A stretch of 64,000 nucleotides of DNA, taken from sequence record PZ495249.1. One strand, written 5' to 3'. Source of the stretch: a phage. The position numbers and the translations under genes were made by a program. The notes under the pieces were generated by a model. It searched no databases. It had not been told where the DNA came from and saw only the letters and a list, made by a program, of their open reading frames with translations. Within the stretch, counting starts at the first letter, position 1; each line of letters starts with the position of its first letter. This document shows positions 7,140 to 64,000 of the stretch, piece by piece.

Positions 7140-8264
7140 TCACATAATCAGTGACAGGTTTGCACTTCGCGTTGTGCTTGGTTCCAGTACCACACGGAAG
7201 CTGTCGCCTGGTTCATCGCTGTACACCACCAGTTTACCACCTGCAATCAGGTCTGTCTTCCACTTCGTGGCGTTCAGGTGAATGCGTGGATCACCTTCAT
7301 CATCAATGATGACTGCGGAACATTCTTCGAATGCTTCCTGATTGTCCTGCGTTGCCGGACGCAGATAAACATCGAGGGTTTTGATGCCACTCAGGAATGA
7401 CATTGGATTGAATCCATGCCAGTTGCTAACCCAGTTCACTTCTGCCAGTTTACCGTTCACGGTGATATTGCTGATATCCCACTTGGCTTCGCCGCCCAGG
7501 GAAATACCCATCATATCCAGACACGCTTTGAAGGTCATGTCTTTGTAGAAGTTAAGCTCTTCCACGATGCCTTGAATCACATCGAAGGAGAGTTCCAAAC
7601 TCACATCCCACAGACGCTGGAAGCTTGCCTGATGCTCTTTATCATCGAGATTCTTATCCAGATAATCGAGCATTGTCTCCAGGGAGATCTTATCATAGTT
7701 GAAGCTGTAGAAGATACGGCTCGGACGGTTGATAAAGAACTCGGAGATGAAGCCGCTATTCTTGGTCAGAATAAACAGCTTGTTACCACTGCCTGTACCA
7801 TCCAAAAGCGTTAACAGCGCTTCCTGATCCTGTTTCTTCTCGTACACTTTGTCAAACTCATCGAAGATGACAATTGCTTTCTCTGCAATCTTGCTCATCA
7901 GTTCAATGAAATTGGCATCGCTATACGCTTGCGTTACCATAATAACTGGTAAACCCTCTGCTGCCAGTTTACGGCTAATCACCTTAGCCAGCATGGTTTT
8001 ACCGCTACCCTTTGTGCCGGATAAGAGAACACCTGTGTTCTTGCCCTGCTCCGCACGACGCTTGTAGGTAGAGATGATGTGCGATGCACGTTTCTCTGTT
8101 TCACCATACAGGACGCTTGGTACTCCTGTCAAATCCCCACGACTAAGGAAGTAGTTACCCAGTGGATCACGGCTCACTGTCCAGAAACCAGCAGGGAGAG
8201 TTTCGCTCTTGACACCTGCCTCTTTGTCCACTACTGCGATATCACCATAAATTGTGTATGACAC
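7140..8264 (-). CDS. P-loop ATPase (AAA-like), paralog of 24796..25956
   Basis: Walker A GTKGSGKT and Walker B IVIFDEFD; long blocks conserved with the 24796 gene product. Confidence 0.75.
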   Translation of the reverse strand: MSYTIYGDIAVVDKEAGVKSETLPAGFWTVSRDPLGNYFLSRGDLTGVPSVLYGETEKRASHIISTYKRRAEQGKNTGVLLSGTKGSGKTMLAKVISRKLAAEGLPVIMVTQAYSDANFIELMSKIAEKAIVIFDEFDKVYEKKQDQEALLTLLDGTGSGNKLFILTKNSGFISEFFINRPSRIFYSFNYDKISLETMLDYLDKNLDDKEHQASFQRLWDVSLELSFDVIQGIVEELNFYKDMTFKACLDMMGISLGGEAKWDISNITVNGKLAEVNWVSNWHGFNPMSFLSGIKTLDVYLRPATQDNQEAFEECSAVIIDDEGDPRIHLNATKWKTDLIAGGKLVVYSDEPGDSFRVVLEPSTTRSANLSLIM

Positions 8265-24728: not shown

Positions 24729-24795
24729 GAGTTGATTTTCACAGGGGAGGTTGATATACTTCCCCTACACTTTAAAGAGAAAGAAGGAGAAATAC

Positions 24796-25956
24796 ATGTT
24801 CACACAATTCGGTAGCCAAATCTTCCTGCGTCAGAAATCCGGTGTTGATATCGACGTAATTCCAGCGGGTACTTATGGTATCGGCGTTACAATGGAAGGT
24901 GCGTTTTATCTGTACCCTAAAAACGATATGGAAGTGCCAGCCGTAACCTACGGCGACACAGATGACAAGTCCGAACGTATCATCAAGACGTTCCTGAGCC
25001 GTGATGGTAAGAACACTGGTGTTCTCCTGGAAGGTACTAAAGGCAGTGGTAAAACCCTGCAAGCGAAAATGCTGTCAGTGGCACTGCGTAAACAGGGCAT
25101 CCCTACCATCTCCATCGGTAGCCCGTTCAACGGTGAAGCGTTCATCAACTTCATGTCGAAAATCAAACAGCCGATCATGGTGATGGTGGATGAATTCGAT
25201 AAGCTTTATGCTGAGAAAGAACACCAGGACGGTCTGCTTACTCTGCTGGATGGTGTCGGTGGTTACAACAAACTGTTCGTTCTGACCAAAAACGATGGTT
25301 ATGTTTCTGAATTCCTGCGCAACCGACCAAGCCGTATCTTCTATAGCTTTAGCTATAAGAAACTGCCTAAGTCTACGCTGGATGATTACCTGGATAAAAA
25401 CCTGGTAAACAAAGCGTTCGTTGCAGACTTCGAAACTCTGTACAACCTGTCAGCAGATCTGAACTTCGACGTAATTCAGTCGCTGGTAGAAGAACTGAAC
25501 CGTTACCCTGACGATAAGTTCTCTGATGCGCTGAACCTGATGGGTATTTCGATCAACGAAGGTAGCCGTTCTGCCAAAGAGATTAAAACTCTGAAAGTGA
25601 ATGGTGTAGATCGTCTGCAAGATGTCCGTGGATTCGATCTGTCTGGAATGTCAGCACAGTCCCTGTTCCAGGGCGCTAAGTTCCAGATCAACGTAGACCA
25701 CAAAGAAGGTACTGAACGTCTGCCTAACATGAAAGGTGTTGTTACCCTTGACCAGCAGGACGCTGACGGCGATTGGTACTATGATTGCGACAAGATCTTC
25801 ATCAGCTACGATGAGAAGAGCATTAAGAGCATGGGCGGAGATGGTTATCACTTCGTGTTCGCTCAGGGCGATAACGTCATTGAGATTGAGGTGAAACAGA
25901 AAGAAACCCTCAACTACATGGATTACGCCTTCTCAGGCGCAGGTTACAACTACTAA
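24796..25956 (+). CDS. P-loop ATPase (AAA-like), paralog of 7140..8264
   Basis: track ORF 24751..25956 trimmed to Met with AAGGAGAAA RBS; Walker A GTKGSGKT; Walker B VMVDEFD. Confidence 0.75.
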   Translation: MFTQFGSQIFLRQKSGVDIDVIPAGTYGIGVTMEGAFYLYPKNDMEVPAVTYGDTDDKSERIIKTFLSRDGKNTGVLLEGTKGSGKTLQAKMLSVALRKQGIPTISIGSPFNGEAFINFMSKIKQPIMVMVDEFDKLYAEKEHQDGLLTLLDGVGGYNKLFVLTKNDGYVSEFLRNRPSRIFYSFSYKKLPKSTLDDYLDKNLVNKAFVADFETLYNLSADLNFDVIQSLVEELNRYPDDKFSDALNLMGISINEGSRSAKEIKTLKVNGVDRLQDVRGFDLSGMSAQSLFQGAKFQINVDHKEGTERLPNMKGVVTLDQQDADGDWYYDCDKIFISYDEKSIKSMGGDGYHFVFAQGDNVIEIEVKQKETLNYMDYAFSGAGYNY

Positions 25957-32513: not shown

Positions 32514-33617
32514 ATGTCTAAGAGTCCATTCCTGAATGCCGTGAAAGGCAATAAGCATGGTGCAAGTGTTCTGACCACTGTTGATGACAAACGCTCTGCA
32601 CTGGCTCCAAGTGTGCTGGAAGCAAGCCCTGTGTTTGCTCCGGCAGTTGTTAAACCTGTACCTGCTCTTCCTGCAATGAGCCGCAAGGAGATTGATGGAG
32701 TGGGCGCTGAGGCAGGACTAACTCTGCGTAGCCTCAACAGCGAAGTGCTGAAACACCAACGTGGTAATCAAGGCGGGGAGATGAATGAACGCCTCACTGC
32801 CCTGATTAAACAGGCTAAACAGCTTGATCCTTCTTCAATCAAGCAGTCAAAAGGCGTTGGTAAATTCATCAAGAAGATCATGGGGCTGAAAGAAGATCTG
32901 TTTGCTGAGTACGACAACGTTAACAACCGTATTGATGTTCTGGTGAAAGAACTGGAAGGTGATGTACGTAAAGAGGAAGATTCACTTGTCTATCTGGAAA
33001 AACTGAAATCCGCTATTGCTCAGTACGCCATGAGCCTTAACCGTGATGTGGAACTCCTGACGGACACCTACGCAAAAGAGGAAGCACGTTTCTTGAATAC
33101 ACCAGAGGAACAAGTGGAAACTCGTACCGAGATCCGTGATACCCTGGATATTCTGGAGATTCGTATTGCTGACCTTAAAGCACTGCGTCTGCTGTGTGTT
33201 CAGATGGGACCACGAGTGAACAGTATGATCAAGGTTAGCGAGATGCTTATGCGATCTGCTCGTAACATAGTGAACAACGTTATTCCGGCTTACTCTGCAA
33301 ACTTCTCAATGTATATTGAGAGCTTACGCCAGGCAGAAGCTGGTAAAACTCAGGCTAATGTGTTGGATGAATTCAACACTGCAATTCAAATGGGGAGCGA
33401 TTTGGCTGCACAAAACATTATCAATGCTACGGCTCTGTCTAACCGTCAGATTCTGGACATTGAAACCCTGCGTAAAGATCAGGAAAACCTGGTTAAAATG
33501 CTGGAAGAAACCAACCGCATCAATACCGAGGCTCGCGCCGCTCGTATTGATTACATCAACGAGGTTCAATCCCTGGAAGATGGGATGATCCAAAAAGTCA
33601 AATCTGGCTTAGTGTAA
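32514..33617 (+). CDS. TelA-like (toxic anion resistance family) helical protein
   Basis: track ORF; AAGGAGAAAGA RBS; all-helical 367 aa; C-terminal ILDIETLRKDQENL..EETNRIN pattern recalled from TelA/YaaN proteins. Confidence 0.6.
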   Translation: MSKSPFLNAVKGNKHGASVLTTVDDKRSALAPSVLEASPVFAPAVVKPVPALPAMSRKEIDGVGAEAGLTLRSLNSEVLKHQRGNQGGEMNERLTALIKQAKQLDPSSIKQSKGVGKFIKKIMGLKEDLFAEYDNVNNRIDVLVKELEGDVRKEEDSLVYLEKLKSAIAQYAMSLNRDVELLTDTYAKEEARFLNTPEEQVETRTEIRDTLDILEIRIADLKALRLLCVQMGPRVNSMIKVSEMLMRSARNIVNNVIPAYSANFSMYIESLRQAEAGKTQANVLDEFNTAIQMGSDLAAQNIINATALSNRQILDIETLRKDQENLVKMLEETNRINTEARAARIDYINEVQSLEDGMIQKVKSGLV

Positions 33618-49803: not shown

Positions 49804-52296
49804 TTAAGCGTAACCACCTGGTTTGAAACCAAGTAGGCTCGTTCCGTCCCATAACAGACTAACTGTGCAACGTCCAGTGGTGTAGGTTGGAGCCGTTCCA
49901 TCTGTCCAGTTGATTGTGTTAGTCCATGACACTGAACCTGTATTACCAGTGAAGATAACAACAATGGTCATCGCTCTACCCGCTGGTAGGTTAGTAATCG
50001 TTAGGGTTTTGCTTGATGCCAGAGAGACAGTAAACACTTGTCCCTGACTTGCGTCAAGTGTAGCAGTTGCAGTAGATACAGCCAAATCGTAACGATTTAG
50101 ACGAGTCCACACACCACCGCTTTGCATGTAATATCCATCTGTGGTAGGGGCTTTCGCCAGTGTTTCTACCCAAGCTGTATCTTTACGTGCATAAACTTTC
50201 CCATCAGCAGGAGCATCTGAGATTCCTGGAGAAGGAATCGTAAACGCTGTCCAACCACCGTCTTTACGAGCGTACATAGAGCCATCGCTTGGTGCGTCAT
50301 AGACGTTACCACCACCCATGTAACCCATAGAAGCCCAGTTAAGGCTGCTGGTTTTCTGGAAGAACTGTAGTGTTAAGGAGTTTAGGAAGTAGTCGCCTAC
50401 ACGTCCGTCAGCAGGTCCAGGGTTACGCTGCAATACGATCCACAGTGTACCTTGATCACCCTTATCACCTTTCACACCCTGCGCACCTTGCGGTCCCGCT
50501 GGTCCCTGGATATTACCTGCGTTCTGGTATGATCCATTTCCTGAGCTATCTACGTTCCAAACCCAGAAGTTGCCATCAATCAGATAACCTTCACCGATGG
50601 TTCCAGTTGCAGGAAGATCTGCGGTTGAATCAAGTTCACCAAGGATCTTAACCCCTGGTCCCATAGGACCTGGAATACCCTGAATACCTTGTTCCCCTTG
50701 AATACCCTGCTCACCCTGGATACCTTGTGGACCGCTGTTCACGCCCATATCGATCCAAGCTGTACCGCTCCAGATGTATGAACGCTGGTGAATGTAGTAC
50801 ATGTCACCTTGAATGTTACCAGTGGTAGGTAGGTCTGAGGTGTTACTTAGTTCACCCTTCGCATGAATAGAATTACCAGTGGCTCCTGTTGCACCTTGTT
50901 CCCCTTGGATGCCACGAAGAACACCCATATCCACCCAACCTTCACTCTTGTCAAAGTTTAGCGTATAGATGTAAAGATTGCCAGTGTCTTCTAAGCTATA
51001 TGCGCTACCGTATGGAGGCTTAACTGGAAGATCGCTTGCAGATGGTACTTGACCTTTAGCGGTGATTGAGATACCTTGTAGAACACCAGCGTTGAGCCAT
51101 TCACCAGTTCCTGCAACAGGATCTATTGCTACCCAAATATAGATGTATTTATCAGGACCGACTAAGTAAGCTGTACCATAATTAACATCTTCCGGCGGAG
51201 GTAATTGACTTTCGTTATCTACTTCACCTACGATGTTAAGACCTGTACCAGGAACACCTTGGATACCAGGTACACCTTGCTCGCCTTGGATACCTTGTTC
51301 ACCTCTATCTCCTTTATCTCCCTTCAGAGATGCAAGGAAATCGGCTTCGGAACCAAAGTTACCAGCATTAATCCAGATTTGGTAAGCGGAGTCCCCGTCT
51401 TTACCATCTGCACCGTTTGTACCAGCATTACCTTTGTCTCCCTTATCCCCTTTGTCGCCTTTCGGACCGACAATAGCTCCCATGTCCACCCACGCAGTAC
51501 CGTTAGATACGTAGAGGTAGGTTCCATAGCTCCATGCCTGAGATACGTTAGCTGGAGATGGTAGTGGCAGTAGTCCAGGATCAGAGATAGCACCCTGATA
51601 ATCAAATCCGTTAGCGTTTACACCAGGATCACCTTTCTGTCCTTGTGGACTTGGATCACCTTTATCGCCCTTGATGGATTGAACGAAGTCAAGCTCTGTA
51701 CCTGTGTTACCAACGTCTAACCAACTTTGATACGCAGATTTACCTTCCGGTCCCACTTGACCAACAGGCGACCATTGGATACTATCCCATACCCACATTT
51801 GCTCTTGAACAATATATGCATCACCAGGAGAGTTTCCTGTCATAGGTAGGTCGGATACAGAATCAAAGCTTCCTTTGATTACAAGACCACTACCTGTATC
51901 TCCTTTCAGAGAATCAAGCCATTCTTGTTCAGTACCGACGAAGCCATTATCTACCGCAATATCATATGCAGATTTACCAGCTTCTGGAATTTGTGTAGCG
52001 AGGTCGTCGATCTCTTGTTGAATAGTTGTGAACTTGGCATTGATAATAGCAATATCGTCAGCTTTACCAACGTTAACCCAAGTGTTAACACCGATGCCAC
52101 CTGTAGAACCAGGGGTAGAGTTTGCTGGAACGACTTTCGGTAAAGCGCCCTTCCATTGATAGTAGTTACCGTCTGTATCGTACAGTAATACTTCTCTTGC
52201 ATTTGTTAATGTAAAGCCAGCTACAAAGCTTCTACGCTTTCTGTAGGTAGCTTCGACCATATCAGCAATAGCGCTATTAGGTCTTGTTAGAATCAT
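49804..52296 (-). CDS. tail fibre protein with collagen-like Gly-X-Y repeats
   Basis: several Gly-X-Y runs (e.g. GPQGIQGEQGIQGEQGIQGIPGPMGPG, GPKGDKGDKGDKGNAGTNGADGKDG); 830 aa; GAGGAG RBS. Confidence 0.8.
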   Translation of the reverse strand: MILTRPNSAIADMVEATYRKRRSFVAGFTLTNAREVLLYDTDGNYYQWKGALPKVVPANSTPGSTGGIGVNTWVNVGKADDIAIINAKFTTIQQEIDDLATQIPEAGKSAYDIAVDNGFVGTEQEWLDSLKGDTGSGLVIKGSFDSVSDLPMTGNSPGDAYIVQEQMWVWDSIQWSPVGQVGPEGKSAYQSWLDVGNTGTELDFVQSIKGDKGDPSPQGQKGDPGVNANGFDYQGAISDPGLLPLPSPANVSQAWSYGTYLYVSNGTAWVDMGAIVGPKGDKGDKGDKGNAGTNGADGKDGDSAYQIWINAGNFGSEADFLASLKGDKGDRGEQGIQGEQGVPGIQGVPGTGLNIVGEVDNESQLPPPEDVNYGTAYLVGPDKYIYIWVAIDPVAGTGEWLNAGVLQGISITAKGQVPSASDLPVKPPYGSAYSLEDTGNLYIYTLNFDKSEGWVDMGVLRGIQGEQGATGATGNSIHAKGELSNTSDLPTTGNIQGDMYYIHQRSYIWSGTAWIDMGVNSGPQGIQGEQGIQGEQGIQGIPGPMGPGVKILGELDSTADLPATGTIGEGYLIDGNFWVWNVDSSGNGSYQNAGNIQGPAGPQGAQGVKGDKGDQGTLWIVLQRNPGPADGRVGDYFLNSLTLQFFQKTSSLNWASMGYMGGGNVYDAPSDGSMYARKDGGWTAFTIPSPGISDAPADGKVYARKDTAWVETLAKAPTTDGYYMQSGGVWTRLNRYDLAVSTATATLDASQGQVFTVSLASSKTLTITNLPAGRAMTIVVIFTGNTGSVSWTNTINWTDGTAPTYTTGRCTVSLLWDGTSLLGFKPGGYA

Positions 52297-52329
52297 TTAT
52301 TACTCCTCGTTCGATTATTAAACGGTAGC

Positions 52330-52360
52330 ATAGAAATTAAAGAGGGGATTTCTCCCCTCT
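52330..52360 (-). terminator. rho-independent terminator (same hairpin as 49780..49799)
   Basis: identical AGAGGGGATTTCTCCCCTCT hairpin; after tailspike gene. Confidence 0.55.
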
Positions 52361-52362
52361 AT

Positions 52363-55300
52363 TTACGTCGTTGGTACATCGTTTGGAGTTGGACGAATTA
52401 CCGCAGTGTTACCCACTGAAACATTACTTGCGTCGTTAGGAACAGTTTTAATTCTAATTCCAGCCGCAGTAGCTGTTTGAATAGGATCGGCAATATCAAT
52501 CTTGACAGGGTTTGTCCACAGGTCATTATCTTGATATGGTGCGCGGGTAATTACAGTATCGAGATCTGCACCACCTGCACCTGCCCCAGGAATACGGATA
52601 CGTGTTCCGGCTGATAATGGGTAATGGTATAACCAAGAAGCGTTTGTCGCCGTTCCATTTGGTACTAAGTTCTGAGCCAGTGATTTATCGCCAACAGTTG
52701 TTGCACGAATTCCGAATGCTGCAATATCTGGGATATATGCACCACTTGTCGTAACAAGGAAGAACGTGTTATCTGCTTTAACGATCATGTCACCTTTATC
52801 AAACTCTTTCCCAGTTGGGAAGTGCAGACCATCAATGTTTCTGCTTGGGTTAGCTTCCAGGTAATAAACCTTTCCGGTAGAACCAAGAAGAGCACCAATT
52901 CCGCCAGCGATGTTGGTATACATGTTGGCTTCAACGTTACAGTTGACACGGTGAATGTCAGAGTAACGGCAACGGCTCCATGCTGGACGACCACTAACCA
53001 TTGTGTTACCATTTGGGTAGCAGTTTACGTTAACCATTTCAAGAACAGATTTCTCGCGACGGAAGAATCCATCGTAGAATGTACCTGGTCCTGACTCTGG
53101 TTGACCAACACACTCGAAGCTGTTACAAGTGATGTTTGACATTGACAGCCAAGAAGCAATACCGAATAGCTGTAGTGCAGCACAACGGATGTTCTCGAAG
53201 CTCACACGGTTTTCAAATCCTGGTCCTGCTGAAACACCTGCGAACACACGCCCTGTGCGGGTATGAACGTTCTTAACAGAGTAGTTGAAGCAAGGGTTTG
53301 AAGGTCTACCTTGTGGTGGCTGAACTGGTTGTCCATCCGGTCCCAATACTGGGTTAGTACCCCACTCCAAGTAAATCAGACGGATATTACTTGCTGGAGT
53401 GTTAGCATCAGTTTTAGGTTCACCGTAAACACCGTCAATCGTGAAGTCTTTGCTTCCGTACATTACCACTGCACCTGTTGCTAAACCAGTACCTGTCGAA
53501 ACAGTCTGATCAGGATCACCGTGGATGTTCTCAATAGTAATGTTACGTCCAACTTCTACGTGAACAATTTGACGACAACGTTTTGCAAACACGTTGCGGA
53601 TTGTGATATTCTTACAGTATTGACTGTCTGGGATATCGTAACCATATGGTCCCTGTCCTGCCACACCGATACCGATACCCCAGTTGGAGTTAGCGATAGG
53701 AGCGTTTGTACCGTCAATGTTAGACAGATAGATGTTCTCGATCACACAACCATCATCATAGTGTTTACTGATAACGTTAAGTTCGATAGCATCACCTTGC
53801 ATATCCATGAAGGTAAGGTTGCGGAATACACCACGAGTTACAGGCTCACCAGTACCTTGTTGAAGAATACCGTATAAACCGTTTTTGAAGGTACAGTTGT
53901 CAATCTCGAATGTACCCGTGATTGGGTTGCCCTGGAATACCAGGCTACCAACTTGTCCTGCGCGTGGCGCACCGTCCCACAGGCAGTCGTAGATACGAAC
54001 TGCACCACCCCAATACATAACGCGAGCGTTACGGAAGGTTACACCTTCTAAGGTAGCATTTTGTAAACGATAGTCACGTTGACCACGGAATACACCACCT
54101 TTCAGCGTGATACCAGTGATATCAAAGCTGCTTGTAGTGAAAGTCATGTCACACCCGTAGGCGTTCAACACTTTCCCTTTGCTGTTAGCAGTTGCTGTCA
54201 GAGCCGCCTGGAAAGCTGCTTCTGGTGTGGTGTATTTTGAATTGTTCGCAAACTCAGACAAGTAAACAACGTCGAACAGATCGTTGAATACACCACCGTG
54301 TGGTGTTAGAAGCGCTTCTGTGTTCGTCAGAACCCAAGTGGTAGGGCTAACCCCTCCGCTGCTTTCTAAAGTGTCTGTAGCTGAAATTGTCTTAGGTAGA
54401 GTACCAGCCCAACGATAACGACCTGAACCCATACCGATAGTTTGGTTCTTGATAGTTAAAGTAGCTGCGTTACCGAAGCTCGTTGGCAGGTGAACAAATT
54501 GTCCACGTTCAACAGCCAGTGCAGCAAGGTCAACTGTACCACCTGAGTAAGTTAACACACCTGTTGCAGAAAGGCTACCGAAGTTACCGCTAATACCTAC
54601 TGGTAGAGTGTACGCTGCTTGGGTTGTAGGATCGTAAAGAGCCTTAATCCCTGTTAGAGACTGCCCTGTTTGTGCTAAACCAACTTCTGCATCTTTCAGA
54701 CCGAACTTACGTGCCACAATCTGTGTTGGAACTTTACTCATCTGAGTCGTCAGATCAGAAGTAGTAGTTTCCAGTGCAGTAACACGGTTTGCCAGGTTAG
54801 GATCGTTATCTGCGGCAGCTACAATTTTACCAATGTACGCAAACAGTTTGTTAGGTAGTCCAGTAGCAGGATCTAAACCAAGAGGTTCAGAAAGAATGAT
54901 CTTGCTGTCCTGAATAGTATACGCATCACCAACAATCTGCACAACCCCGTTGATAGTTACGATAGCACTATCAAACACGTATGGAGGGCTGATAACTTTC
55001 TCATAACCTGTTGCGCCAGTGTACAACCAAGGGTATACTTCGTTAGCAAGCTGTTCAGTTTTCATAGCCCAGAGAACCCAGTTATTATCTCCTACTGGAG
55101 TCCCTTGCATAGGGATTGGGTTAGCGGTTGTCGCTGTTGGAGCGTAGTAATACCCACTCAGAATCCCATTCTGGAAGAAACGGAGTTGGTTAAATACTGT
55201 TTCATTAGTACCTGCCGCCCAAGCGACAGGGCTTTTGAAATAGAAGTTATCAAGCAACGCTTTACGCAGCGTAGGAATTAAACCTGTTTCAGTTTCAACC

Positions 55301-55407
55301 GTAGCTGTCGCAGCACCGTTAATAACATCGTGCAACTGGTTAGAAGAGAAAATAACCAGGTCAACACCCTGATCGAGTGTTGTAGCAGGATATGTTGGAA
55401 ATGCCAT
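52363..55407 (-). CDS. tailspike / receptor-binding protein with parallel beta-helix-like repeats (candidate depolymerase)
   Basis: 1014 aa; repeated N.T..N pattern (NCTFKNG, NITIRNV, NITIENI) typical of pectate-lyase-like beta-helices. Confidence 0.7.
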   Translation of the reverse strand: MAFPTYPATTLDQGVDLVIFSSNQLHDVINGAATATVETETGLIPTLRKALLDNFYFKSPVAWAAGTNETVFNQLRFFQNGILSGYYYAPTATTANPIPMQGTPVGDNNWVLWAMKTEQLANEVYPWLYTGATGYEKVISPPYVFDSAIVTINGVVQIVGDAYTIQDSKIILSEPLGLDPATGLPNKLFAYIGKIVAAADNDPNLANRVTALETTTSDLTTQMSKVPTQIVARKFGLKDAEVGLAQTGQSLTGIKALYDPTTQAAYTLPVGISGNFGSLSATGVLTYSGGTVDLAALAVERGQFVHLPTSFGNAATLTIKNQTIGMGSGRYRWAGTLPKTISATDTLESSGGVSPTTWVLTNTEALLTPHGGVFNDLFDVVYLSEFANNSKYTTPEAAFQAALTATANSKGKVLNAYGCDMTFTTSSFDITGITLKGGVFRGQRDYRLQNATLEGVTFRNARVMYWGGAVRIYDCLWDGAPRAGQVGSLVFQGNPITGTFEIDNCTFKNGLYGILQQGTGEPVTRGVFRNLTFMDMQGDAIELNVISKHYDDGCVIENIYLSNIDGTNAPIANSNWGIGIGVAGQGPYGYDIPDSQYCKNITIRNVFAKRCRQIVHVEVGRNITIENIHGDPDQTVSTGTGLATGAVVMYGSKDFTIDGVYGEPKTDANTPASNIRLIYLEWGTNPVLGPDGQPVQPPQGRPSNPCFNYSVKNVHTRTGRVFAGVSAGPGFENRVSFENIRCAALQLFGIASWLSMSNITCNSFECVGQPESGPGTFYDGFFRREKSVLEMVNVNCYPNGNTMVSGRPAWSRCRYSDIHRVNCNVEANMYTNIAGGIGALLGSTGKVYYLEANPSRNIDGLHFPTGKEFDKGDMIVKADNTFFLVTTSGAYIPDIAAFGIRATTVGDKSLAQNLVPNGTATNASWLYHYPLSAGTRIRIPGAGAGGADLDTVITRAPYQDNDLWTNPVKIDIADPIQTATAAGIRIKTVPNDASNVSVGNTAVIRPTPNDVPTT

Positions 55408-55748
55408 TAATTTTTGTCCTTACTTTGTGTGCGTTTAGTTATTTCCTCTAACATCATCTGGATAGTCGCATTCTTGAGATCCATAATCTTTTCGATTTTC
55501 TGTTCAAGAGCGGTATTGTTTGCCATCAGAGTAGAGTTTATCTGGTTCAGCATCTGAGCAAGTTCGGCTTTCGTTGCGTAAGTTGATTCGACAAAGACGA
55601 GTTTCTTTTCTAATTCTCGATACTTGTCTTCAACTTCTTCTAAATCCGATGACATGTCATCAACTTTCTGTTTGAAGAAGAACCAGATAACACCAATTAA
55701 AGGGAGTATCGTTTCCTTTGCGATATCCCATAGTTCGGTAATTTGCAT
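55407..55748 (-). CDS. hypothetical protein with N-terminal hydrophobic helix (113 aa)
   Basis: track ORF; AAGGAG RBS; ATGA-type overlap with tailspike start. Confidence 0.5.
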   Translation of the reverse strand: MQITELWDIAKETILPLIGVIWFFFKQKVDDMSSDLEEVEDKYRELEKKLVFVESTYATKAELAQMLNQINSTLMANNTALEQKIEKIMDLKNATIQMMLEEITKRTQSKDKN

Positions 55749-55757
55749 GTGATCTCC

Positions 55758-56303
55758 TTATTTGGTTGGCAGGATAGGCCATTCAATATTAGTTGGATAG
55801 CCCTCTTGCGAAGTCACACGGCTTAGATATACCAAGTAACGTTGCAATTCTTTTAAGTAGGCAGCTTCTTCGTCAGTCATCATATCCAACTCTTTAGCCG
55901 CCTGTAACGGAGCCATAAGTTGAGAGACTTCGTTTTGTAATGTATCTGCTTTACTTTTTGCATTTGCAATCAGTTCTTCACGAGTTGGTATACGATCTTT
56001 TATTTTCCCTGTTCGAAGATCAAACACCTTGTTTTTGAAATCATCAATGACACCATCTAAATCAATATCGGCAATGCAAGCATTGATAGGCCACAAGCCA
56101 GATACATCCTTGGAGACGGATGTAATTACCCCAGACTGTTTATCGAAAACAATTTTCAGCTTATCATTATCAAACAAACGCTGGCATTCGTACCAATCTA
56201 CACCTTCTTGACTTTTCAGAAAAATGACGTTTAAAGTTTTCTGTAACTCCAGCTTGTCTTTATCTTCTGGGTTGTAAATTTTAAAATTTGTTAAAATAGT
56301 CAT
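55758..56303 (-). CDS. tail fibre assembly chaperone-like protein
   Basis: track ORF 55758..56327 trimmed to Met overlapping fibre stop (TAATG); Tfa-like C-terminus; sits immediately downstream of a fibre gene. Confidence 0.6.
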   Translation of the reverse strand: MTILTNFKIYNPEDKDKLELQKTLNVIFLKSQEGVDWYECQRLFDNDKLKIVFDKQSGVITSVSKDVSGLWPINACIADIDLDGVIDDFKNKVFDLRTGKIKDRIPTREELIANAKSKADTLQNEVSQLMAPLQAAKELDMMTDEEAAYLKELQRYLVYLSRVTSQEGYPTNIEWPILPTK

Positions 56304-57358
56304 TATAATTGTCCCACCGTGTACCAATTTCCGTTAACATTCTTCTGGACAGGTTTGAAATATAATGTATCCCCGCCAGGGTTTTCACCCTCGAAGTAAT
56401 AACCCATTACAAAACCGCCACCATCTGCTAAGACAGCCTGATTGTGTTTAATAATCTTCGTGTACGTCGCGCCTAAGCGGATATCTATAACACAGTTAGC
56501 AAGAGTCCAGTTCCAGTTGTTAGAGATCTGCCCTTGCAGGTAGTCCTGTACGTTAGTAATACGGTTGTTAACTGCACCAATCTGAGAGTTGATGTAGTTA
56601 GTTAGGTTGGTATTAACGTTGTTGATGTTGTTTTGCAACGTCGTCTGTAACGTGTTTAAACGTGAGTTTAAATAGTCTAAACGAACAAGCGCATTCTGGT
56701 TCACTGTATCCTGTGCATCGTTTGTACGAGGACTTGTCAGGGTAACATAACCACCATCCCACATAGTAACAACAGCAGTTTGAGCACCGTTTGCAGGGTT
56801 AATACGTGCCATTGATAAATAACCACCACCCGCATAAGTGGATGAGAAGTTACCATTAGTCTGACCAGCGAAATTCTGAAAGAAGATCGTTGCAGCATCT
56901 GTTGTGCTTGTACCACAGACATAAATATCACCGCCCCAAATACCACCATTACCATCTCGCTTAACTAATACGTTAGGAGTGACAACATTACTTGTAGCAT
57001 CTGAGATATTCGCTGATAAGTGGTTGTGACTGTTATCTACCACCTGAATTGAAAGAGTAACCTCTTTGTTACCATTCCAAGTTACAGAACCCGTGGCATC
57101 ACCAGCCATTGTAATCTTAGTACCAACAAGCGGAAGATAGGTGTTTGGTAACGTTGGCATGAAGTCATCTACGATGTAGTGAATCCATAATCCAAGGTTA
57201 TTCAGCAGCCAGTTTAATTCTTCGCAAGTCATAATTTGACCGAAGTCCATACCCACTGTGCGGATAGTTTCTTTCGGTCTAATCTTGTTTGTGTTCCCTG
57301 TCCCTGGAAGCGTTACTGTTTGTGTCGCCCAATCAGGGTAGTATGTTGGCTTAGCCAT
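56303..57358 (-). CDS. tail fibre protein (351 aa)
   Basis: Asn-rich coiled segment NNINNVNTNLTNYINSQIGAVNNRITNVQ; AAGGAG RBS; followed by chaperone gene. Confidence 0.6.
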   Translation of the reverse strand: MAKPTYYPDWATQTVTLPGTGNTNKIRPKETIRTVGMDFGQIMTCEELNWLLNNLGLWIHYIVDDFMPTLPNTYLPLVGTKITMAGDATGSVTWNGNKEVTLSIQVVDNSHNHLSANISDATSNVVTPNVLVKRDGNGGIWGGDIYVCGTSTTDAATIFFQNFAGQTNGNFSSTYAGGGYLSMARINPANGAQTAVVTMWDGGYVTLTSPRTNDAQDTVNQNALVRLDYLNSRLNTLQTTLQNNINNVNTNLTNYINSQIGAVNNRITNVQDYLQGQISNNWNWTLANCVIDIRLGATYTKIIKHNQAVLADGGGFVMGYYFEGENPGGDTLYFKPVQKNVNGNWYTVGQL

Positions 57359-57367
57359 TTAAACTCC

Positions 57368-57997
57368 TTACTCTATTTGCGCTATTAGCATACACATGCG
57401 TCCAGTTTCTTCTCCGGTAGATTCCATGTATAGGGAACCCAGGCCACCAATCCCATGAGGGGGCTTAGTCGCGTAATAGGAAGTGAAACCGAAAGCCGAT
57501 CCAGACTTCGCTCCTAAACGGTAGCTACTTAAAATTGGGAAAACGTTAAGCAGTTGCGCAATAGCCTGATCAGATTGCAGACACAAGTTATAAAAGAATA
57601 CGTCGAAGGTTTTGTTTAACCCAACGTATGTGTTAATCGTAGATCTATCTGTACCTGTGAAACGAGCGAAAATATCAATAATGTCGCCTCGTGTACCAGA
57701 GGATGCAACACGATATGCCCTGATTTTTAAAATCGTTCTATACTCTTCATCGTCAGAACCATTTCGTTCGATCCCCATTTCTTCACCGATGATATCGAGA
57801 TATTCACCTGTAGCAGTGGAGATCAAACGGTGTTTAGCAAGATAGATCATTGCCTGATCTATCTTTTGCTTTTCACTTGAAATGACGTAAAGGAGCTTGA
57901 CAATGTTTTCAGAAGATTTAAAATCTTCAATCAGGAGGTTTTTAACATCTTCATTGATATTATCCCAAGTCGTTACATGGTCAACACTCACTGCCAT
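57368..57997 (-). CDS. baseplate protein (P2 gpI-like position)
   Basis: track ORF; called from position next to the gpJ-like gene, in P2-like J-I-H-G order. Confidence 0.5.
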   Translation of the reverse strand: MAVSVDHVTTWDNINEDVKNLLIEDFKSSENIVKLLYVISSEKQKIDQAMIYLAKHRLISTATGEYLDIIGEEMGIERNGSDDEEYRTILKIRAYRVASSGTRGDIIDIFARFTGTDRSTINTYVGLNKTFDVFFYNLCLQSDQAIAQLLNVFPILSSYRLGAKSGSAFGFTSYYATKPPHGIGGLGSLYMESTGEETGRMCMLIAQIE

Positions 57998-57999
57998 TT

Positions 58000-59487
58000 T
58001 TAGACTCCGTATTCGTATGAAATGTTTTCAAGGTCGAATGATGGTACAACGTTGTACGCAGGAACGATATCGCTCTCAGTGTATTTACTGTCATCCTCAG
58101 TATTAAGTTTAACATAAACACGCAGAGAAGTCAAGCGTCCAAACGCCAGAGCGGAATAAATTACCCCTTTAATCTGGTCGTTAGTAACAGTTGAACCTAA
58201 TTCGAAGTAAGCTTGCAGGTCAGAGAGAGCCTTGACAATGTTTTCTCTTTCTGTCGTACTTAGAGTAGAACCGTTAGCACTCTGATAAACCAGTTTCAGA
58301 GAGTAAACTTGGCTATCACCTGGAGAGAAACGAATAATCTCTTGACCACCGTCTTCCGTTGTGATAGTAATAGCTGTAGTCCCATAAGTCAGGGTGTTGA
58401 TTGGCTTAGTGTCATAAATAACTTTAGCCACTTCCTCAGCGTTACCACCGAATACGATAGTTTGGAAAGTAAAGGCTGGTGCATATGTCTGATCGTGCAG
58501 TGTCGGGTTATCATAAATCTTAACCTTAGTTACACCGTCAGTTAACAGCAGAGCTTTGACAATCGCAGCACGAGTAGCAGCATTTGCTTCATCAAGGTTG
58601 TCATTGAAACGTGAACGGAATTCCGCATCGGTTTCAACATCACGACCTGGGGAGAATGCATAGAAGTTACCAGTGTCTAAGTAACCCGCAAATGTTGAAG
58701 AGATACCAGTGATACTCTCCACGCCAACAGGGTTATATCCAGCCTCTGCACCAACGACAGGAATTTCACTCCACTTAATTCCGATAGGAATGGAAGCGTA
58801 GAATTTCATTGGAGTAACAAGCCCAACGGGATTAACGTTATCTGAGGTATTAAAACCTACGTATACGTTGCTTGAATCGTTCCATACAAGGTTTCTATCC
58901 GTGATAGATACGTTTGCCTTAATGAAATTCATTAAGTCTGTAATGAACGTTGTAGAGTTCGGATTTAGCGTTTTACTGTTCAGACCACCATCACTTGCGT
59001 TCTGCATGTAGAATGTAATAGCGTTTACACCAGATCCTGTTGCGTTAGCCTTGGAAATAGTGTATGCTCCAATCTTAGCATTAAGCATGGTAGGAGTGCT
59101 GACGTAATATGTCAAGTCGTTATCTGCATTGAAATAGGTTTCTGTGCCTAATTCATAAGTCCAAGCAGCTTTGTTGTTTGTCTTAACGTAAGCATAACCA
59201 CTACCAGCAGATGCACCTTGGCGGTAGAAACCACGTTTAGAGAAAATCTCGTCGAGGTAAATACCTTCTGCGCCATCTAAGGTTTGCGTGTTATAGACAC
59301 CCTGCATACCTTCCCACAATGTGTAGTCGGTGTATGCAACAATGCGGAACAACTGCCCGAAAACCGTATCTTCGGAAGTTGCAGTGTCTGCCCCGAAAGT
59401 GTTTTTCAGGGAAGTCATGTAGTTATTCAGAATGTCATCGAATGTCGGGATTACAAATCCCGCATCTGTTAGGCCATAATCTGCCAT
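58000..59487 (-). CDS. baseplate wedge protein (gpJ-like)
   Basis: 495 aa; AAGGAGGA RBS; position between spike/wedge genes and fibre genes. Confidence 0.55.
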   Translation of the reverse strand: MADYGLTDAGFVIPTFDDILNNYMTSLKNTFGADTATSEDTVFGQLFRIVAYTDYTLWEGMQGVYNTQTLDGAEGIYLDEIFSKRGFYRQGASAGSGYAYVKTNNKAAWTYELGTETYFNADNDLTYYVSTPTMLNAKIGAYTISKANATGSGVNAITFYMQNASDGGLNSKTLNPNSTTFITDLMNFIKANVSITDRNLVWNDSSNVYVGFNTSDNVNPVGLVTPMKFYASIPIGIKWSEIPVVGAEAGYNPVGVESITGISSTFAGYLDTGNFYAFSPGRDVETDAEFRSRFNDNLDEANAATRAAIVKALLLTDGVTKVKIYDNPTLHDQTYAPAFTFQTIVFGGNAEEVAKVIYDTKPINTLTYGTTAITITTEDGGQEIIRFSPGDSQVYSLKLVYQSANGSTLSTTERENIVKALSDLQAYFELGSTVTNDQIKGVIYSALAFGRLTSLRVYVKLNTEDDSKYTESDIVPAYNVVPSFDLENISYEYGV

Positions 59488-59735
59488 TAATCTTCCTCCT
59501 TCTTATCAGGGGCAGGTGTTCTGCCCCAACGTAGATCGATCAGATTCTTCATTAAGCGTGAAGGTGTGATCATGAAAACGAAAGCCCAACCCATCCACTC
59601 AGGGATCTCTTTTTCGATCCCTAAGAAGATGAACATTCCTGTCATGGTAAGCATTCCGACTGCGTTCCACACTTTGGTAGAACTAACTTTGCTGTTTGGA
59701 TAAGTACAAAACATTCCGATTAAAAATTTCTTCAT
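59487..59735 (-). CDS. small membrane-like protein (82 aa)
   Basis: track ORF; ATGA overlap; hydrophobic segments. Confidence 0.45.
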   Translation of the reverse strand: MKKFLIGMFCTYPNSKVSSTKVWNAVGMLTMTGMFIFLGIEKEIPEWMGWAFVFMITPSRLMKNLIDLRWGRTPAPDKKEED

Positions 59736-62566
59736 TGGTTTTTTCTCAAGTCAATGCCAATATCTGGTAGGCTTGACTGCGGATTCAGTTCACGGTAAAG
59801 TGCATACAGACCGAAGCCACGTAGCAATTCACCTGCGTGGAAACCGAAGAACATGCCGTTGTCCGTATTGGCGCGAGGTGCAACACTCCAGCTTCCGTTC
59901 ATTGGATGATTAGGAGTCAGAATGATGTAATTTTCTTGGATCAGTTCGAAGCAACGATCAGCCACAATACCGATGTTAGGAATTTGATTTTCCAGACCAG
60001 CAAGACCAACATAAGAACATCCAGCCATCCACAACGCTGACATGTGACTTGTGAAGTCATCAATAGGTGCAAGCACTGTTCCATCTGGGTTAAAGATGGT
60101 TGGTGTACGTCCATCATTATGATCCTGGAACCATTTCAGGTAATCAACCCAGTTCTTAACAACTGTCAGTAGTTTAGGTGGAATAGGCTCGTTACGAGCT
60201 TTTAGTTCGTGCAGACAACGTGCAGCACAATAGAATGCGCGAGCTTCGTATCCATCCCAAGCTTTCTCGTTCCAGTGTTTCATTGTGAACTCATTGGTGT
60301 CACCGTATTTCTTAGCATCCCAACGATCCCATACGAATGCTTGAGCCATAGGACCAGGCATTACAGGATTGAATGTTGTGTAGAACCATTGTTGAGCGTC
60401 ATAAAGGAAGTTGATACTTTCATTCAGACGTGTATAATCAATGTTCTGACCTTTGAAGCAATACAGAGTAGGGTACTGGTATCCTGGGTATGGAAGTCCA
60501 CGCCATCCATCAAACAAAGCCGTATTAGGGTCACTGATGTTGGAGAACGGGATAATACCAGGTGTGTAGTACAAACTGTTTAGCTTATAGTCGATGATTA
60601 CACAATCACCAAGTTTGGCATTGTACGGATTGCTTCCCTGTACCGTGATACGGAAATACATGGTATAATCATCACCACTCGTAGAGGAGTAGGTGGTAGG
60701 TACGTCATTAACGCAATACCAATCAATTTTACCATTTACACCGTTCACTGGATCTGTATCCAGCACCAGGTTGATTTGATCTACATGGCTTAAATCAATA
60801 ACAGATGGTTTAGGATCTGTCTCTGGGTGGTTAGGCTGATAAGCACTTAATTTGAAGCTTGCTGGAGTTAGGTTTAATGTAGACCATGCACCACCAGTTT
60901 TCGGAACCATAGCCCACCATCTCCATCCGGCAGCATCTGTAATCGTGATATTAAAATCATCGTTGTAAGATCTGTACGATAGAGACTTTAAGTTTGTTGT
61001 CTCAGCATCAAGTAACCAGAAACCGATAGTGATACCACCATCGCCATCCATTGTTGCACTGCAAATCTGATCACTAATTCCTGATAGAATGTTAGTAGTA
61101 TACTGGAATTGTACCACAGTATTATCACCCCAGTCAACAACAATTCGTGGATCTGCAATAATATATTGACCACCACCAGGAGGAGTTGAACGGACGAAGT
61201 TATATAGCGGAATATCCATTGACTGAATCGCTGTTGTACCTAATGGCAAACCACAACGATACTCAACTAAATCATTCTCAGTTTTTGATTTACTCAGTGA
61301 TAATTCAGGGCGGAACAGCAGACCATTACCTGCATCATCTACACCGGAGAATTGAACACGGAGTTTAGAATTCTGATCTACACGGAACCAGATTGCTTGT
61401 TGTTCCAGTGTAGTTTGTGCAGCCACATTCTGACGAATTGTGATATAACCCTTTGAGTCACGTCCATATACCGGAGTAGCATCTGAGGGGTATGTGTAAT
61501 CATAACTGATACCGTCAGTAAATGGAATAGCTGCCATTGTTGATTTACGGAAGAATTTATCAAAACGGTCAATATCTGAATAGTCGATACATACCATTAA
61601 TGAAGACTGCCAGCAAAGCCAGTATTTTCTTTCTCCAGTAATTTTATACATGATGTAGTTAACATCGCACCACCATGTCTCAGCATCCGAGGCATTGTCT
61701 GCGAAGTCAAGAGAAATAGGAACGTTCACAGGACGGTTATGCCACATTTCATTACGTCCCATTAAATATCCACCTTTATCCACCGGATTGCAAGTTGCGT
61801 AATTGAACTTGTGGTTTCCATTTAATGTTGTGTTCTTTAACTGAACTGTTCCATATTCGGCAACAGAATACCCTTCTTGGATAATATTTCCGTCCCAATC
61901 CACTTTACGTCCCAGGCGGTCGATAATCCAATCCACATCATATTGCTGTCCCTTAGCATCCCAGTTTGTTGATCCGTCAGCGTTAGCAGCATATACTGTT
62001 GCGTTAACAGAATTCCAACCTAAGTTACCGTCGAAAGCGAACCATGCTTTGTCCAGATATTCACCCCAATGCGGAGCACCGTGAGGAATAACAGTACGCC
62101 CGTTTGTCCATGTCATCATGCTTCCTTTGAAGCCACCATGAGTAGGATATCCGTCATCGGTTAACGGGTAGTGTGCCAGGCGCGGTTCTTTCCCGTTAAT
62201 GATCCAGTTAGGACGATATTTAGCCGGAGGATCAGGAATAGGTTGACCACCGAAGAAGTGATCAATATAGGCTTGCCAGTATTTCTTAGCAGAGTCTAAA
62301 TATTTCTTATCCCCCGTAGCAAGATATGCATAGGCACATCCAAGAATCAGCACTGATTGACCTTCGGTAGTAGCGTCACCATTTGGCTGACCTTCTTGAC
62401 CTGTCCAGTTAATAAAGTGTCTGTTGTTCGCTAATACGAATTGTGGGTTGAATACGTAGTGTTGAACTGTAGGATCAATAGTCAAACCCGTATTACGATC
62501 AAGGAACTGAATATGTCCCTCAATCAATTGAAAAGCATTGTCAATATTGTGCTGTGTTCTTGACAT
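59732..62566 (-). CDS. large baseplate-associated structural protein (944 aa)
   Basis: track ORF; AGGAG RBS; Trp/Tyr/Asn-rich; embedded in baseplate cluster. Confidence 0.65.
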   Translation of the reverse strand: MSRTQHNIDNAFQLIEGHIQFLDRNTGLTIDPTVQHYVFNPQFVLANNRHFINWTGQEGQPNGDATTEGQSVLILGCAYAYLATGDKKYLDSAKKYWQAYIDHFFGGQPIPDPPAKYRPNWIINGKEPRLAHYPLTDDGYPTHGGFKGSMMTWTNGRTVIPHGAPHWGEYLDKAWFAFDGNLGWNSVNATVYAANADGSTNWDAKGQQYDVDWIIDRLGRKVDWDGNIIQEGYSVAEYGTVQLKNTTLNGNHKFNYATCNPVDKGGYLMGRNEMWHNRPVNVPISLDFADNASDAETWWCDVNYIMYKITGERKYWLCWQSSLMVCIDYSDIDRFDKFFRKSTMAAIPFTDGISYDYTYPSDATPVYGRDSKGYITIRQNVAAQTTLEQQAIWFRVDQNSKLRVQFSGVDDAGNGLLFRPELSLSKSKTENDLVEYRCGLPLGTTAIQSMDIPLYNFVRSTPPGGGQYIIADPRIVVDWGDNTVVQFQYTTNILSGISDQICSATMDGDGGITIGFWLLDAETTNLKSLSYRSYNDDFNITITDAAGWRWWAMVPKTGGAWSTLNLTPASFKLSAYQPNHPETDPKPSVIDLSHVDQINLVLDTDPVNGVNGKIDWYCVNDVPTTYSSTSGDDYTMYFRITVQGSNPYNAKLGDCVIIDYKLNSLYYTPGIIPFSNISDPNTALFDGWRGLPYPGYQYPTLYCFKGQNIDYTRLNESINFLYDAQQWFYTTFNPVMPGPMAQAFVWDRWDAKKYGDTNEFTMKHWNEKAWDGYEARAFYCAARCLHELKARNEPIPPKLLTVVKNWVDYLKWFQDHNDGRTPTIFNPDGTVLAPIDDFTSHMSALWMAGCSYVGLAGLENQIPNIGIVADRCFELIQENYIILTPNHPMNGSWSVAPRANTDNGMFFGFHAGELLRGFGLYALYRELNPQSSLPDIGIDLRKNQ

Positions 62567-63039
62567 TAAATAACTCCTGCTGTCGCTAACTTACCTGTCC
62601 AGGTAGCGCCGTTGTCATAGCTGGTGAACTCGAAAGTGTCAACAGCCCCTTGTGCATAACTCAACACCGGATCACGTCCATAGCTCCACTTGACAGAAGG
62701 AGGCCATGATACTAAATTAGCACCACTGCCTTGTTTCAATGCCAATACAAACGTCTGAACCACGTTCGTAGTTACAGGAATGTTTGTGAAGCTGATTGTA
62801 CATGTTGAGGATGATAGTGTGGCAGTGAAATAGTCTGCCGTGTTTAAGTCTAAAGATAAAGCACTACCTACTGTTCCTCTTACAGAGAGGCGGTTACGCA
62901 CCACCCCTCCTCCGGCAAGAAGAACTTTCAAGGCAGTTTTCTTAGTGATACCCGCTTGGTCAGTAATGAAGAAATCATTATCTCCTACTGACGTTGTTTG
63001 GGAAAGATCACTAACCTTGATTGTTGTTAGATCTGCCAT
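62566..63039 (-). CDS. virion structural protein (157 aa)
   Basis: track ORF; ATGA overlap with downstream gene. Confidence 0.55.
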   Translation of the reverse strand: MADLTTIKVSDLSQTTSVGDNDFFITDQAGITKKTALKVLLAGGGVVRNRLSVRGTVGSALSLDLNTADYFTATLSSSTCTISFTNIPVTTNVVQTFVLALKQGSGANLVSWPPSVKWSYGRDPVLSYAQGAVDTFEFTSYDNGATWTGKLATAGVI

Positions 63040-63667
63040 TTATACTGTTAACTCCCATAGTTGCAGTAATACCGAAGCCATTATCATTCGCCAATGCTTT
63101 ACCACCCTCGTTGACCATGATTTTCTCAACGAGTCCTTCTTCAACCCATTCATTCCACCAGGTAGAATATGTTCCTCTTGGTAGCCCAACAAAGTTGATG
63201 AAGCGGTATAGACGGTTAGAAGAATCGACAATTTCGAATGCTTCACAAGTGATCGAAGCGTTATCATCCCCAGATTCAGGATAAATAAATTCTTCGGAAG
63301 GTTGTGTGTTAAATACTGAGGTAACAGTATCTGCACCAACTGTAACAGTGACATTCATAGAGTAATATCTTTCATCACGATCAAAGTAGGACGTGTATGA
63401 ATTGATATTGTCTACGTAAATGTTGTTAGCAATTTCAGCCAGGAAGATTCTGTCCACAACTTCTTTCTTCTTAGCCACACCTACAATTTCTTGGAGATAT
63501 GGTACACCGAATTGAGAATTTAGGAACCACTCTCCACGATATGTTTTAAGAGTGATACCTAAAGTTTGAGCAGCAATTTCCGTCTTCGTTGTCGTTAGTG
63601 TAAGATCCCCGTTCGCAAGAACGAGGTCATTATTACTACCTAACTTTAGATCAAATGGAATACCCAT
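63011..63667 (-). CDS. putative baseplate protein (218 aa)
   Basis: track ORF; GGAG RBS; N-terminal DL.L..NGDL.L....EI.AQTL.I.L.T..GEWF pattern. Confidence 0.55.
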   Translation of the reverse strand: MGIPFDLKLGSNNDLVLANGDLTLTTTKTEIAAQTLGITLKTYRGEWFLNSQFGVPYLQEIVGVAKKKEVVDRIFLAEIANNIYVDNINSYTSYFDRDERYYSMNVTVTVGADTVTSVFNTQPSEEFIYPESGDDNASITCEAFEIVDSSNRLYRFINFVGLPRGTYSTWWNEWVEEGLVEKIMVNEGGKALANDNGFGITATMGVNSINGRSNNNQG

Positions 63668-63669
63668 TA

Positions 63670-64000
63670 TTATTCTCCAGTAGGTGGATCAGATTCACGA
63701 GAACTATTACCGCTCTGAACGTTACGGACTGTGTGGGTGTGGTTATGGAATCCAATACCGTTACCATCAGTCATCTTACCGCTTTCGTCGATAATTAAGC
63801 CGTTAATGTTTACTACGCCACCTTTCCATGTTAACTTACCGCCAGAGATGGTTAATGTTCCTGTACCATCCGTGATAGTTATTCCAGAAGGTGTCATATC
63901 CATTTTCATGCCTTGGCTATTGTAAATGGAAATAGTACCTGTCGGGTCGAATGAGGCGTATGTATTTTTATTGTTTGAGATAACCACTTTATCGGAGTCA
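63670..64000 (-). CDS. baseplate central spike-like protein, 5-prime end outside window
   Basis: reading frame open to window edge (track start is GTG at 63987); C-terminal GIGFHNHTHTV His-rich motif as in gpV-type spike tips. Confidence 0.5.
   Translation of the reverse strand, partial: DSDKVVISNNKNTYASFDPTGTISIYNSQGMKMDMTPSGITITDGTGTLTISGGKLTWKGGVVNINGLIIDESGKMTDGNGIGFHNHTHTVRNVQSGNSSRESDPPTGE

Follow-up and report, generated by a model that had tools for sequence, protein, structure and literature searches.

A putative central baseplate spike gene of the phi92 type at the edge of a 64-kb sequence from an uncultured phage

The sequence analyzed here, referred to as the window, is a stretch of 64,000 nucleotides of phage DNA (sequence record PZ495249.1), and the feature under study occupies its last positions (63670-64000), both strands of which were read. 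On the minus strand, an open reading frame (ORF) enters from the window edge, being open to base 64000, and terminates at a TAA stop codon (63672..63670). Translation of 63999..63670 (minus strand) yields 109 codons without a stop, followed by TAA, and the visible 109-residue peptide is DSDKVVISNNKNTYASFDPTGTISIYNSQGMKMDMTPSGITITDGTGTLTISGGKLTWKGGVVNINGLIIDESGKMTDGNGIGFHNHTHTVRNVQSGNSSRESDPPTGE. Its C-terminal end (...TDGNGIGFHNHTHTVRNVQSGNSSRESDPPTGE) comprises the residues GIGFHNHTHTV...PTGE, in which the motif GIGFHNHTHTV is encoded at 63727-63759 (minus strand), with histidine codons at 63745-63747, 63739-63741, and 63733-63735 of the same strand. Both the frame open to 64000 and the motif near the C-terminus had been described in a first-pass annotation made from the letters alone, and both are confirmed on the minus strand, the strand having been left unstated there. 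The earliest start-like codon inside the open frame is GTG 63987, from which the mechanical ORF list derives a 105-aa ORF (63670..63987). Plus-strand ORFs that overlap 63670-64000 (47 and 64 aa) are unsupported and were set aside as antisense artefacts.

Immediately downstream on the same strand is a gene for a 218-aa protein (63011..63667, minus strand), whose ATG is located 2 nt after the TAA stop codon. This protein matches chain L of PDB entry 21vq, 'Phi92_gp139' (E = 3.5e-108), and in PHROGs it belongs to phrog_120, baseplate wedge subunit (E = 2.2e-18). A Pfam scan of the protein gave no match even at E ≤ 0.1, whereas a precomputed domain table lists PF10934 (Sheath_initiator); the PDB search settles its identity as the phi92 gp139 orthologue, a sheath initiator. 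Further downstream, in one operon with the gene at the window edge, are baseplate wedge genes (57368..59487, minus strand) that encode a 495-aa orthologue of phi92 gp145 and a 209-aa orthologue of phi92 gp146. Their matches to 21vq chains have E-values of 3.5e-287 and 5.5e-123, respectively, and the Pfam domain Baseplate_J is present. A promoter and terminator scan of 55000-64000 remained at background level.

Other genes lie between the sheath initiator and the wedge genes. A 157-aa protein (62566-63039, minus strand), whose gene shares 29 nt with the end of the sheath-initiator gene, is assigned to the 'tail fiber protein' family phrog_9017 (E = 3e-56) and is the positional equivalent of phi92 gp140, a fibre-like candidate that was reported to resemble a head-spike protein (PMC13450770). 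It is followed by a conserved 944-aa 'tail protein' (59732-62566, minus strand; phrog_2871, E = 0), for which Pfam and PDB searches gave neither a Pfam domain nor a solved homologue. In the phi92 study, 'fiber II' stands without a protein assignment and gp141/gp142 are never mentioned (PMC13450770); the 944-aa protein might be a candidate for a phi92-type 'fiber II'. The gene for the 944-aa tail protein and the wedge gene flank one for an 82-aa predicted membrane protein (59487-59735, minus strand; phrog_1322, E = 8e-26), and the placement of a membrane protein within a virion-structural operon is unusual.

With regard to the gene at the window edge, a PDB search with the 109-residue fragment identified phi92 'gene product 138' (3PQH, 3PQI, and the cryo-EM baseplate 21vq; E = 2.4e-39). 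Fragment residues 1-108 align to residues 138-246 of the 247-residue phi92 chain, i.e., up to its penultimate residue, and 68 of the 109 aligned columns (62%) are identical. This phi92 protein was reportedly crystallised by Browning et al. in 2012 (Structure 20:326; 3PQI, 3PQH) as a 'membrane-piercing', iron-loaded central spike. In addition, the fragment contains the Pfam beta-helical trimerization domain PF21930 over the full profile (1-75/75; E = 9e-26; score 90.1 bits, cut-off 27). Chance can be dismissed as the source of either match. The protein had been called spike-like in the first-pass annotation, a description that its identity to the phi92 membrane-piercing protein and its PF21930 domain bear out. 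Judged from these sequence matches, the window fragment represents the final, C-terminal 45% of a protein orthologous to phi92 gene product 138.

A structure prediction, which had been proposed for the full protein as a check on that description, was made with AlphaFold for the fragment as a monomer from its single sequence. The model is all-beta with 9 strands (pLDDT 67), and because a monomer cannot represent an intertwined trimer it corroborates the assignment only weakly. In a Foldseek comparison with the PDB, significant matches of the model were limited to 3PQI/3PQH, 'bacteriophage phi92 membrane-piercing protein' (E = 3e-10), a match that is partly sequence-driven (TM 0.52, rmsd 12 Å). 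An exhaustive HMMER search of representatives with the fragment gave 13 matches at E ≤ 1e-3, several of which are long repetitive beta-helix proteins and not spikes. In a word-indexed protein search, the 109-aa fragment gave no match; the relatives did appear in the exhaustive HMMER and PDB searches. In PHROGs, no family was found for the fragment, whereas all neighbouring genes were assigned to one.

To trace the upstream part of the gene, public assemblies were searched for exact copies of the 218-aa protein encoded downstream. Six metagenomic contigs retrieved in this way (153-155 kb in the longest ones) share 96.8-99.5% nucleotide identity with the final 2-7.5 kb of the window; they come from JGI metagenomes 3300048913-28 and from two Logan SRA assemblies. 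The spike gene is complete in all six as a 244-aa ORF that starts with MDALNFVT, and upstream of the window edge it runs on for a further 135 codons, to an ATG that follows aaggtaaata. The window therefore contains the 3′ part of the gene (63670..64000, minus strand; 109 codons plus TAA), with the first ~135 codons beyond its edge, as had been supposed when the N-terminal part was placed outside the window. It had also been considered that an in-frame stop just beyond the window might leave a 105-aa protein without a spike fold, and the complete ORF in six of six contigs all but rules this out. In five of the contigs the last 109 spike residues are identical to those in the window, the 4 differences among 331 nt all being synonymous. 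The N-terminal 135 residues attributed to the window's genome are those of near-identical, not identical, contigs.

The full-length 244-aa protein from the contigs contains the N-terminal OB-fold domain PF18352 (E = 2.8e-10; score 40.5 bits, cut-off 26.1) in addition to PF21930. It matches 3PQI/21vq with E = 5e-123, residues 1-243 aligning to residues 1-244 of the chain, and its identity to the phi92 spike is 76% overall and 87% over the N-terminal 135 residues. In the contigs, the gene order upstream is tape measure, Dit-like tube initiator, Pam3_gp18-like plug, E217_GP41-like hub (PF22759), and spike, so the spike gene sits between the hub, seen in the contigs, and the sheath initiator, seen in the window. 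This order agrees with the phi92 baseplate gene order given in the cryo-EM paper (PMC13450770, 2026).

Within the window, the intertwined beta-helical trimerization domain (PF21930) is assigned to 63757..63987 (minus strand), which corresponds to fragment residues 5-81 and to residues 140-216 of the 244 aa. It is followed by the putative apex (tip) domain, residues 217-244 (IGFHNHTHTVRNVQSGNSSRESDPPTGE; 63673..63756, minus strand), which aligns residue by residue with the phi92 tip and whose boundaries were set where the Pfam beta-helix match ends. The apex carries the HxH motif H222-T223-H224 (63733..63741, minus strand; codons CAC ACC CAC), the two histidines of which are the predicted Fe ligands. 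The first histidine of HNHTH, H220 (63745..63747, minus strand), is lineage-specific and lies outside the conserved cage.

Conservation of these histidines was assessed in an alignment of 12 spikes. Since several of the 13 matches found with the fragment are not spikes, the alignment was completed with tblastn matches from the phage collection. It is comprised of the window-type full-length protein, to which the identities range from 22% to 81%, phAPEC8 gp100, the protein of phage 92CQ, four cluster representatives from the exhaustive HMMER search, those of Klebsiella phage KP13-16 and Vibrio phage PS17B-2, rV5 ORF45, that of Cronobacter phage EspYZU15, and P2 gpV. Eight columns are invariant, H222 and H224 among them. 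In the H220 column, H occurs only in phi92/phAPEC8-like sequences and in P2, the other relatives having N, E, D, or other residues. P2 gpV has a matching H-x-H-x-H string (H195, H197, and H199), and H222/H224 align with its H197/H199. It was reported that H197 and H199 of three P2 gpV chains form an octahedral cage around an Fe ion, and no cage role is described for H195 (bioRxiv 10.1101/2023.02.25.529910). The Fe-ligand assignment made here is based on the P2 numbering of that paper (bioRxiv 10.1101/2023.02.25.529910) and on the alignment, not on phi92 residue numbers.

The functional motif is most probably H222-T-H224, and metal binding is suggested by the alignment. Of the His-rich apex with a metal-binding HxH tip described in the first-pass annotation, the HxH part holds, H222 and H224 being invariant in the 12 spikes, and 'His-rich' overstates the tip because conservation across the family is limited to the last two of the three histidines and does not include H220. 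That spikes down to 22% identity keep only the last two histidines of HNHTH agrees with the published view of the HxH cage as the one universal sequence feature of apex-bearing spikes. It is highly unlikely that the extra H220 and the apparently faster-evolving beta-helix and apex (62% identity, against 87% for the OB domain) reflect a second metal site or a tip adaptation specific to the host envelope; if they did, the tip would be more than a passive iron-stiffened drill bit.

Among known spikes, that of phi92 combines an OB-fold with a beta-helix and with an apex in which Fe is held by three HxH motifs (bioRxiv 10.1101/2023.02.25.529910; PMC13450770). The protein described here resembles it in length (244 aa versus 245 aa), in the OB-fold/beta-helix/apex architecture, in the H-x-H-x-H string, and in having a hub gene upstream and a gp139-like sheath initiator gene downstream. 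On the other hand, its beta-helix and apex are more diverged than its N-terminal OB domain, one residue is deleted from the beta-helix (TD-GTG here, TDAGGG in phi92), and the tip motif is HNHTHT in place of HTHTHP. The 'baseplate spike' gp100 of the Phapecoctavirus phAPEC8 is 81% identical, also 244 aa long, and encoded at an equivalent operon position; being without a solved structure, it is a relative at the annotation level only.

The spikes of P2 (gpV) and R2-pyocin (3QR7/3AQJ and 4S36/4S37) share the OB-fold, the triple beta-helix, and an apex in which three HxH motifs enclose an Fe ion, and the HxH columns align. However, P2 gpV is shorter (211 aa) and only ~22% identical in a forced alignment. 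No P2 gpV chain was found among the PDB matches at E ≤ 1 with either the fragment or the full-length protein as query, and no gpV-type Pfam domain was found in the 244-aa protein at E ≤ 0.01. The relation to P2 gpV is one of analogous or very distantly homologous architecture, not of family membership. The tip had been likened at first sight to the HxH tips of gpV-type spikes; the shared HxH tip and design bear this out, but the sequence family is the phi92 type (PF18352 plus PF21930), not gpV.

The T4 gp5-gp5.4 and T6SS VgrG-PAAR assemblies likewise provide a membrane-piercing beta-helical needle with a metal-stabilised cone. A gp5/VgrG-type spike, which would carry an enzymatic (lysozyme) domain and need a separate PAAR cap, has in its favour this general beta-helical architecture and weak Foldseek matches to VgrG/CIS spikes (3wit and 7b5h, E > 0.1). 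In those systems, however, a separate PAAR protein with Zn bound via Cys/His forms the cone, whereas a His/Fe cone within one chain is predicted here. The spike also lacks the lysozyme domain that T4 gp5 carries, the 244-aa protein being without any lysozyme, PAAR, or other enzymatic Pfam domain, and its own HxH apex is of the kind treated in the literature as an alternative to a PAAR cap (bioRxiv 10.1101/2023.02.25.529910). Such a spike is extremely improbable at this locus.

There is also scarcely any probability that the segment belongs to a tail fibre or tailspike rather than a central spike. HxH iron sites keep trimeric beta-structure in register in such proteins as well (bioRxiv 10.1101/2023.02.25.529910), several genes of this kind are located nearby in the window, and the beta-helix repeats weakly match long repetitive proteins. 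Against this are the end-to-end orthology to the trimeric central spike of the phi92 baseplate, the length of 244 aa with an OB-fold N-domain, which suits a spike, and the location between the hub and the sheath initiator, which is the central-spike position. A short stand-alone protein of 105 aa, unrelated to spikes and starting at GTG 63987, would be consistent with the appearance of 63670..63987 in the ORF list with a GTG start, but it deserves practically no credence: the frame upstream of this codon is open to the window edge, the four preceding residues (DSDK) still align with DSEK of phi92, 135 more codons lead to an ATG in six contigs that are 97-99.5% identical, and the GTG encodes V140, with which the Pfam beta-helix domain begins.

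The central-spike reading is based on observed homology, domain content, conservation of the HxH pair, and synteny. The segment almost certainly codes for the beta-helix and apex at the C-terminal end of a central baseplate spike, that of a contractile-tailed phage akin to phi92 and phAPEC8, with the trimeric state, the iron, and the piercing role predicted by analogy with the solved homologues. Briefly, three 244-aa chains would assemble into a needle, as their homology to solved spikes suggests; phi92 protein 138 has been resolved as a trimeric central spike in the baseplate (PMC13450770). The N-terminal OB-fold domains would dock on the trimeric baseplate hub that closes the tail-tube end, and the middle parts of the three chains would wind around one another as a triple-stranded beta-helix. 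The last ~28 residues would knot into a sharp cone, in which six histidines (H222 and H224 of each chain) are predicted to cage one Fe octahedrally on the threefold axis. Upon sheath contraction, the tube may drive the rigid spike tip through the host outer membrane, after which the spike would dissociate and open a channel for the tape-measure protein and DNA. Spike dissociation has been observed in contracted phi92 (PMC13450770). It was also reported that the P2 apex and histidine cage are not required for infection under laboratory conditions (bioRxiv 10.1101/2023.02.25.529910), which makes it debatable how important the iron tip is for function.

The spike gene is an ordinary, well-characterised structural gene that adds one more member to a known family, in a phage that is uncultured. 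Its assignment gives a structure-backed name to a gene cut by the window edge and matters little beyond annotation, while marking the window as the baseplate/tail-fibre region of a phi92/phAPEC8-like myophage that is uncultured. The phage collection searched lacks the window's own genome; closest by nucleotide sequence are Phapecoctavirus members such as phAPEC8, with ~74-75% identity over only 44% of the window's last 25 kb. Together with the 81% identity to phAPEC8 gp100, these values assign the window to an uncultured relative within the phi92/phAPEC8 group, Stephanstirmvirinae-like at the subfamily level. Among the non-fibre tail proteins searched against solved structures, none matched the phi92 endosialidase gp143, so the host-recognition set may differ from that of phi92.

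Some other features of the window were also recorded. No tRNA genes or Rfam matches were found in the 64 kb. Two large receptor-binding proteins are encoded at 49804-55407 (minus strand), both with a Tail_spike_N (TSP1/Gp66) adaptor domain; one has 1014 aa, and the other, of 830 aa, also contains collagen-like repeats and ends in a fibritin-C-like part. Among the non-structural genes is one for a TelA-like (toxic anion resistance) protein (32514-33617, plus strand; Pfam E = 2.8e-33). In addition, two AAA+ ATPases (7140-8264, minus strand, and 24751-25956, plus strand) have a weak resemblance to nSTAND3, a STAND NTPase N-domain, with E-values of 5e-7 and 2e-5 that are near or below the Pfam cut-off.
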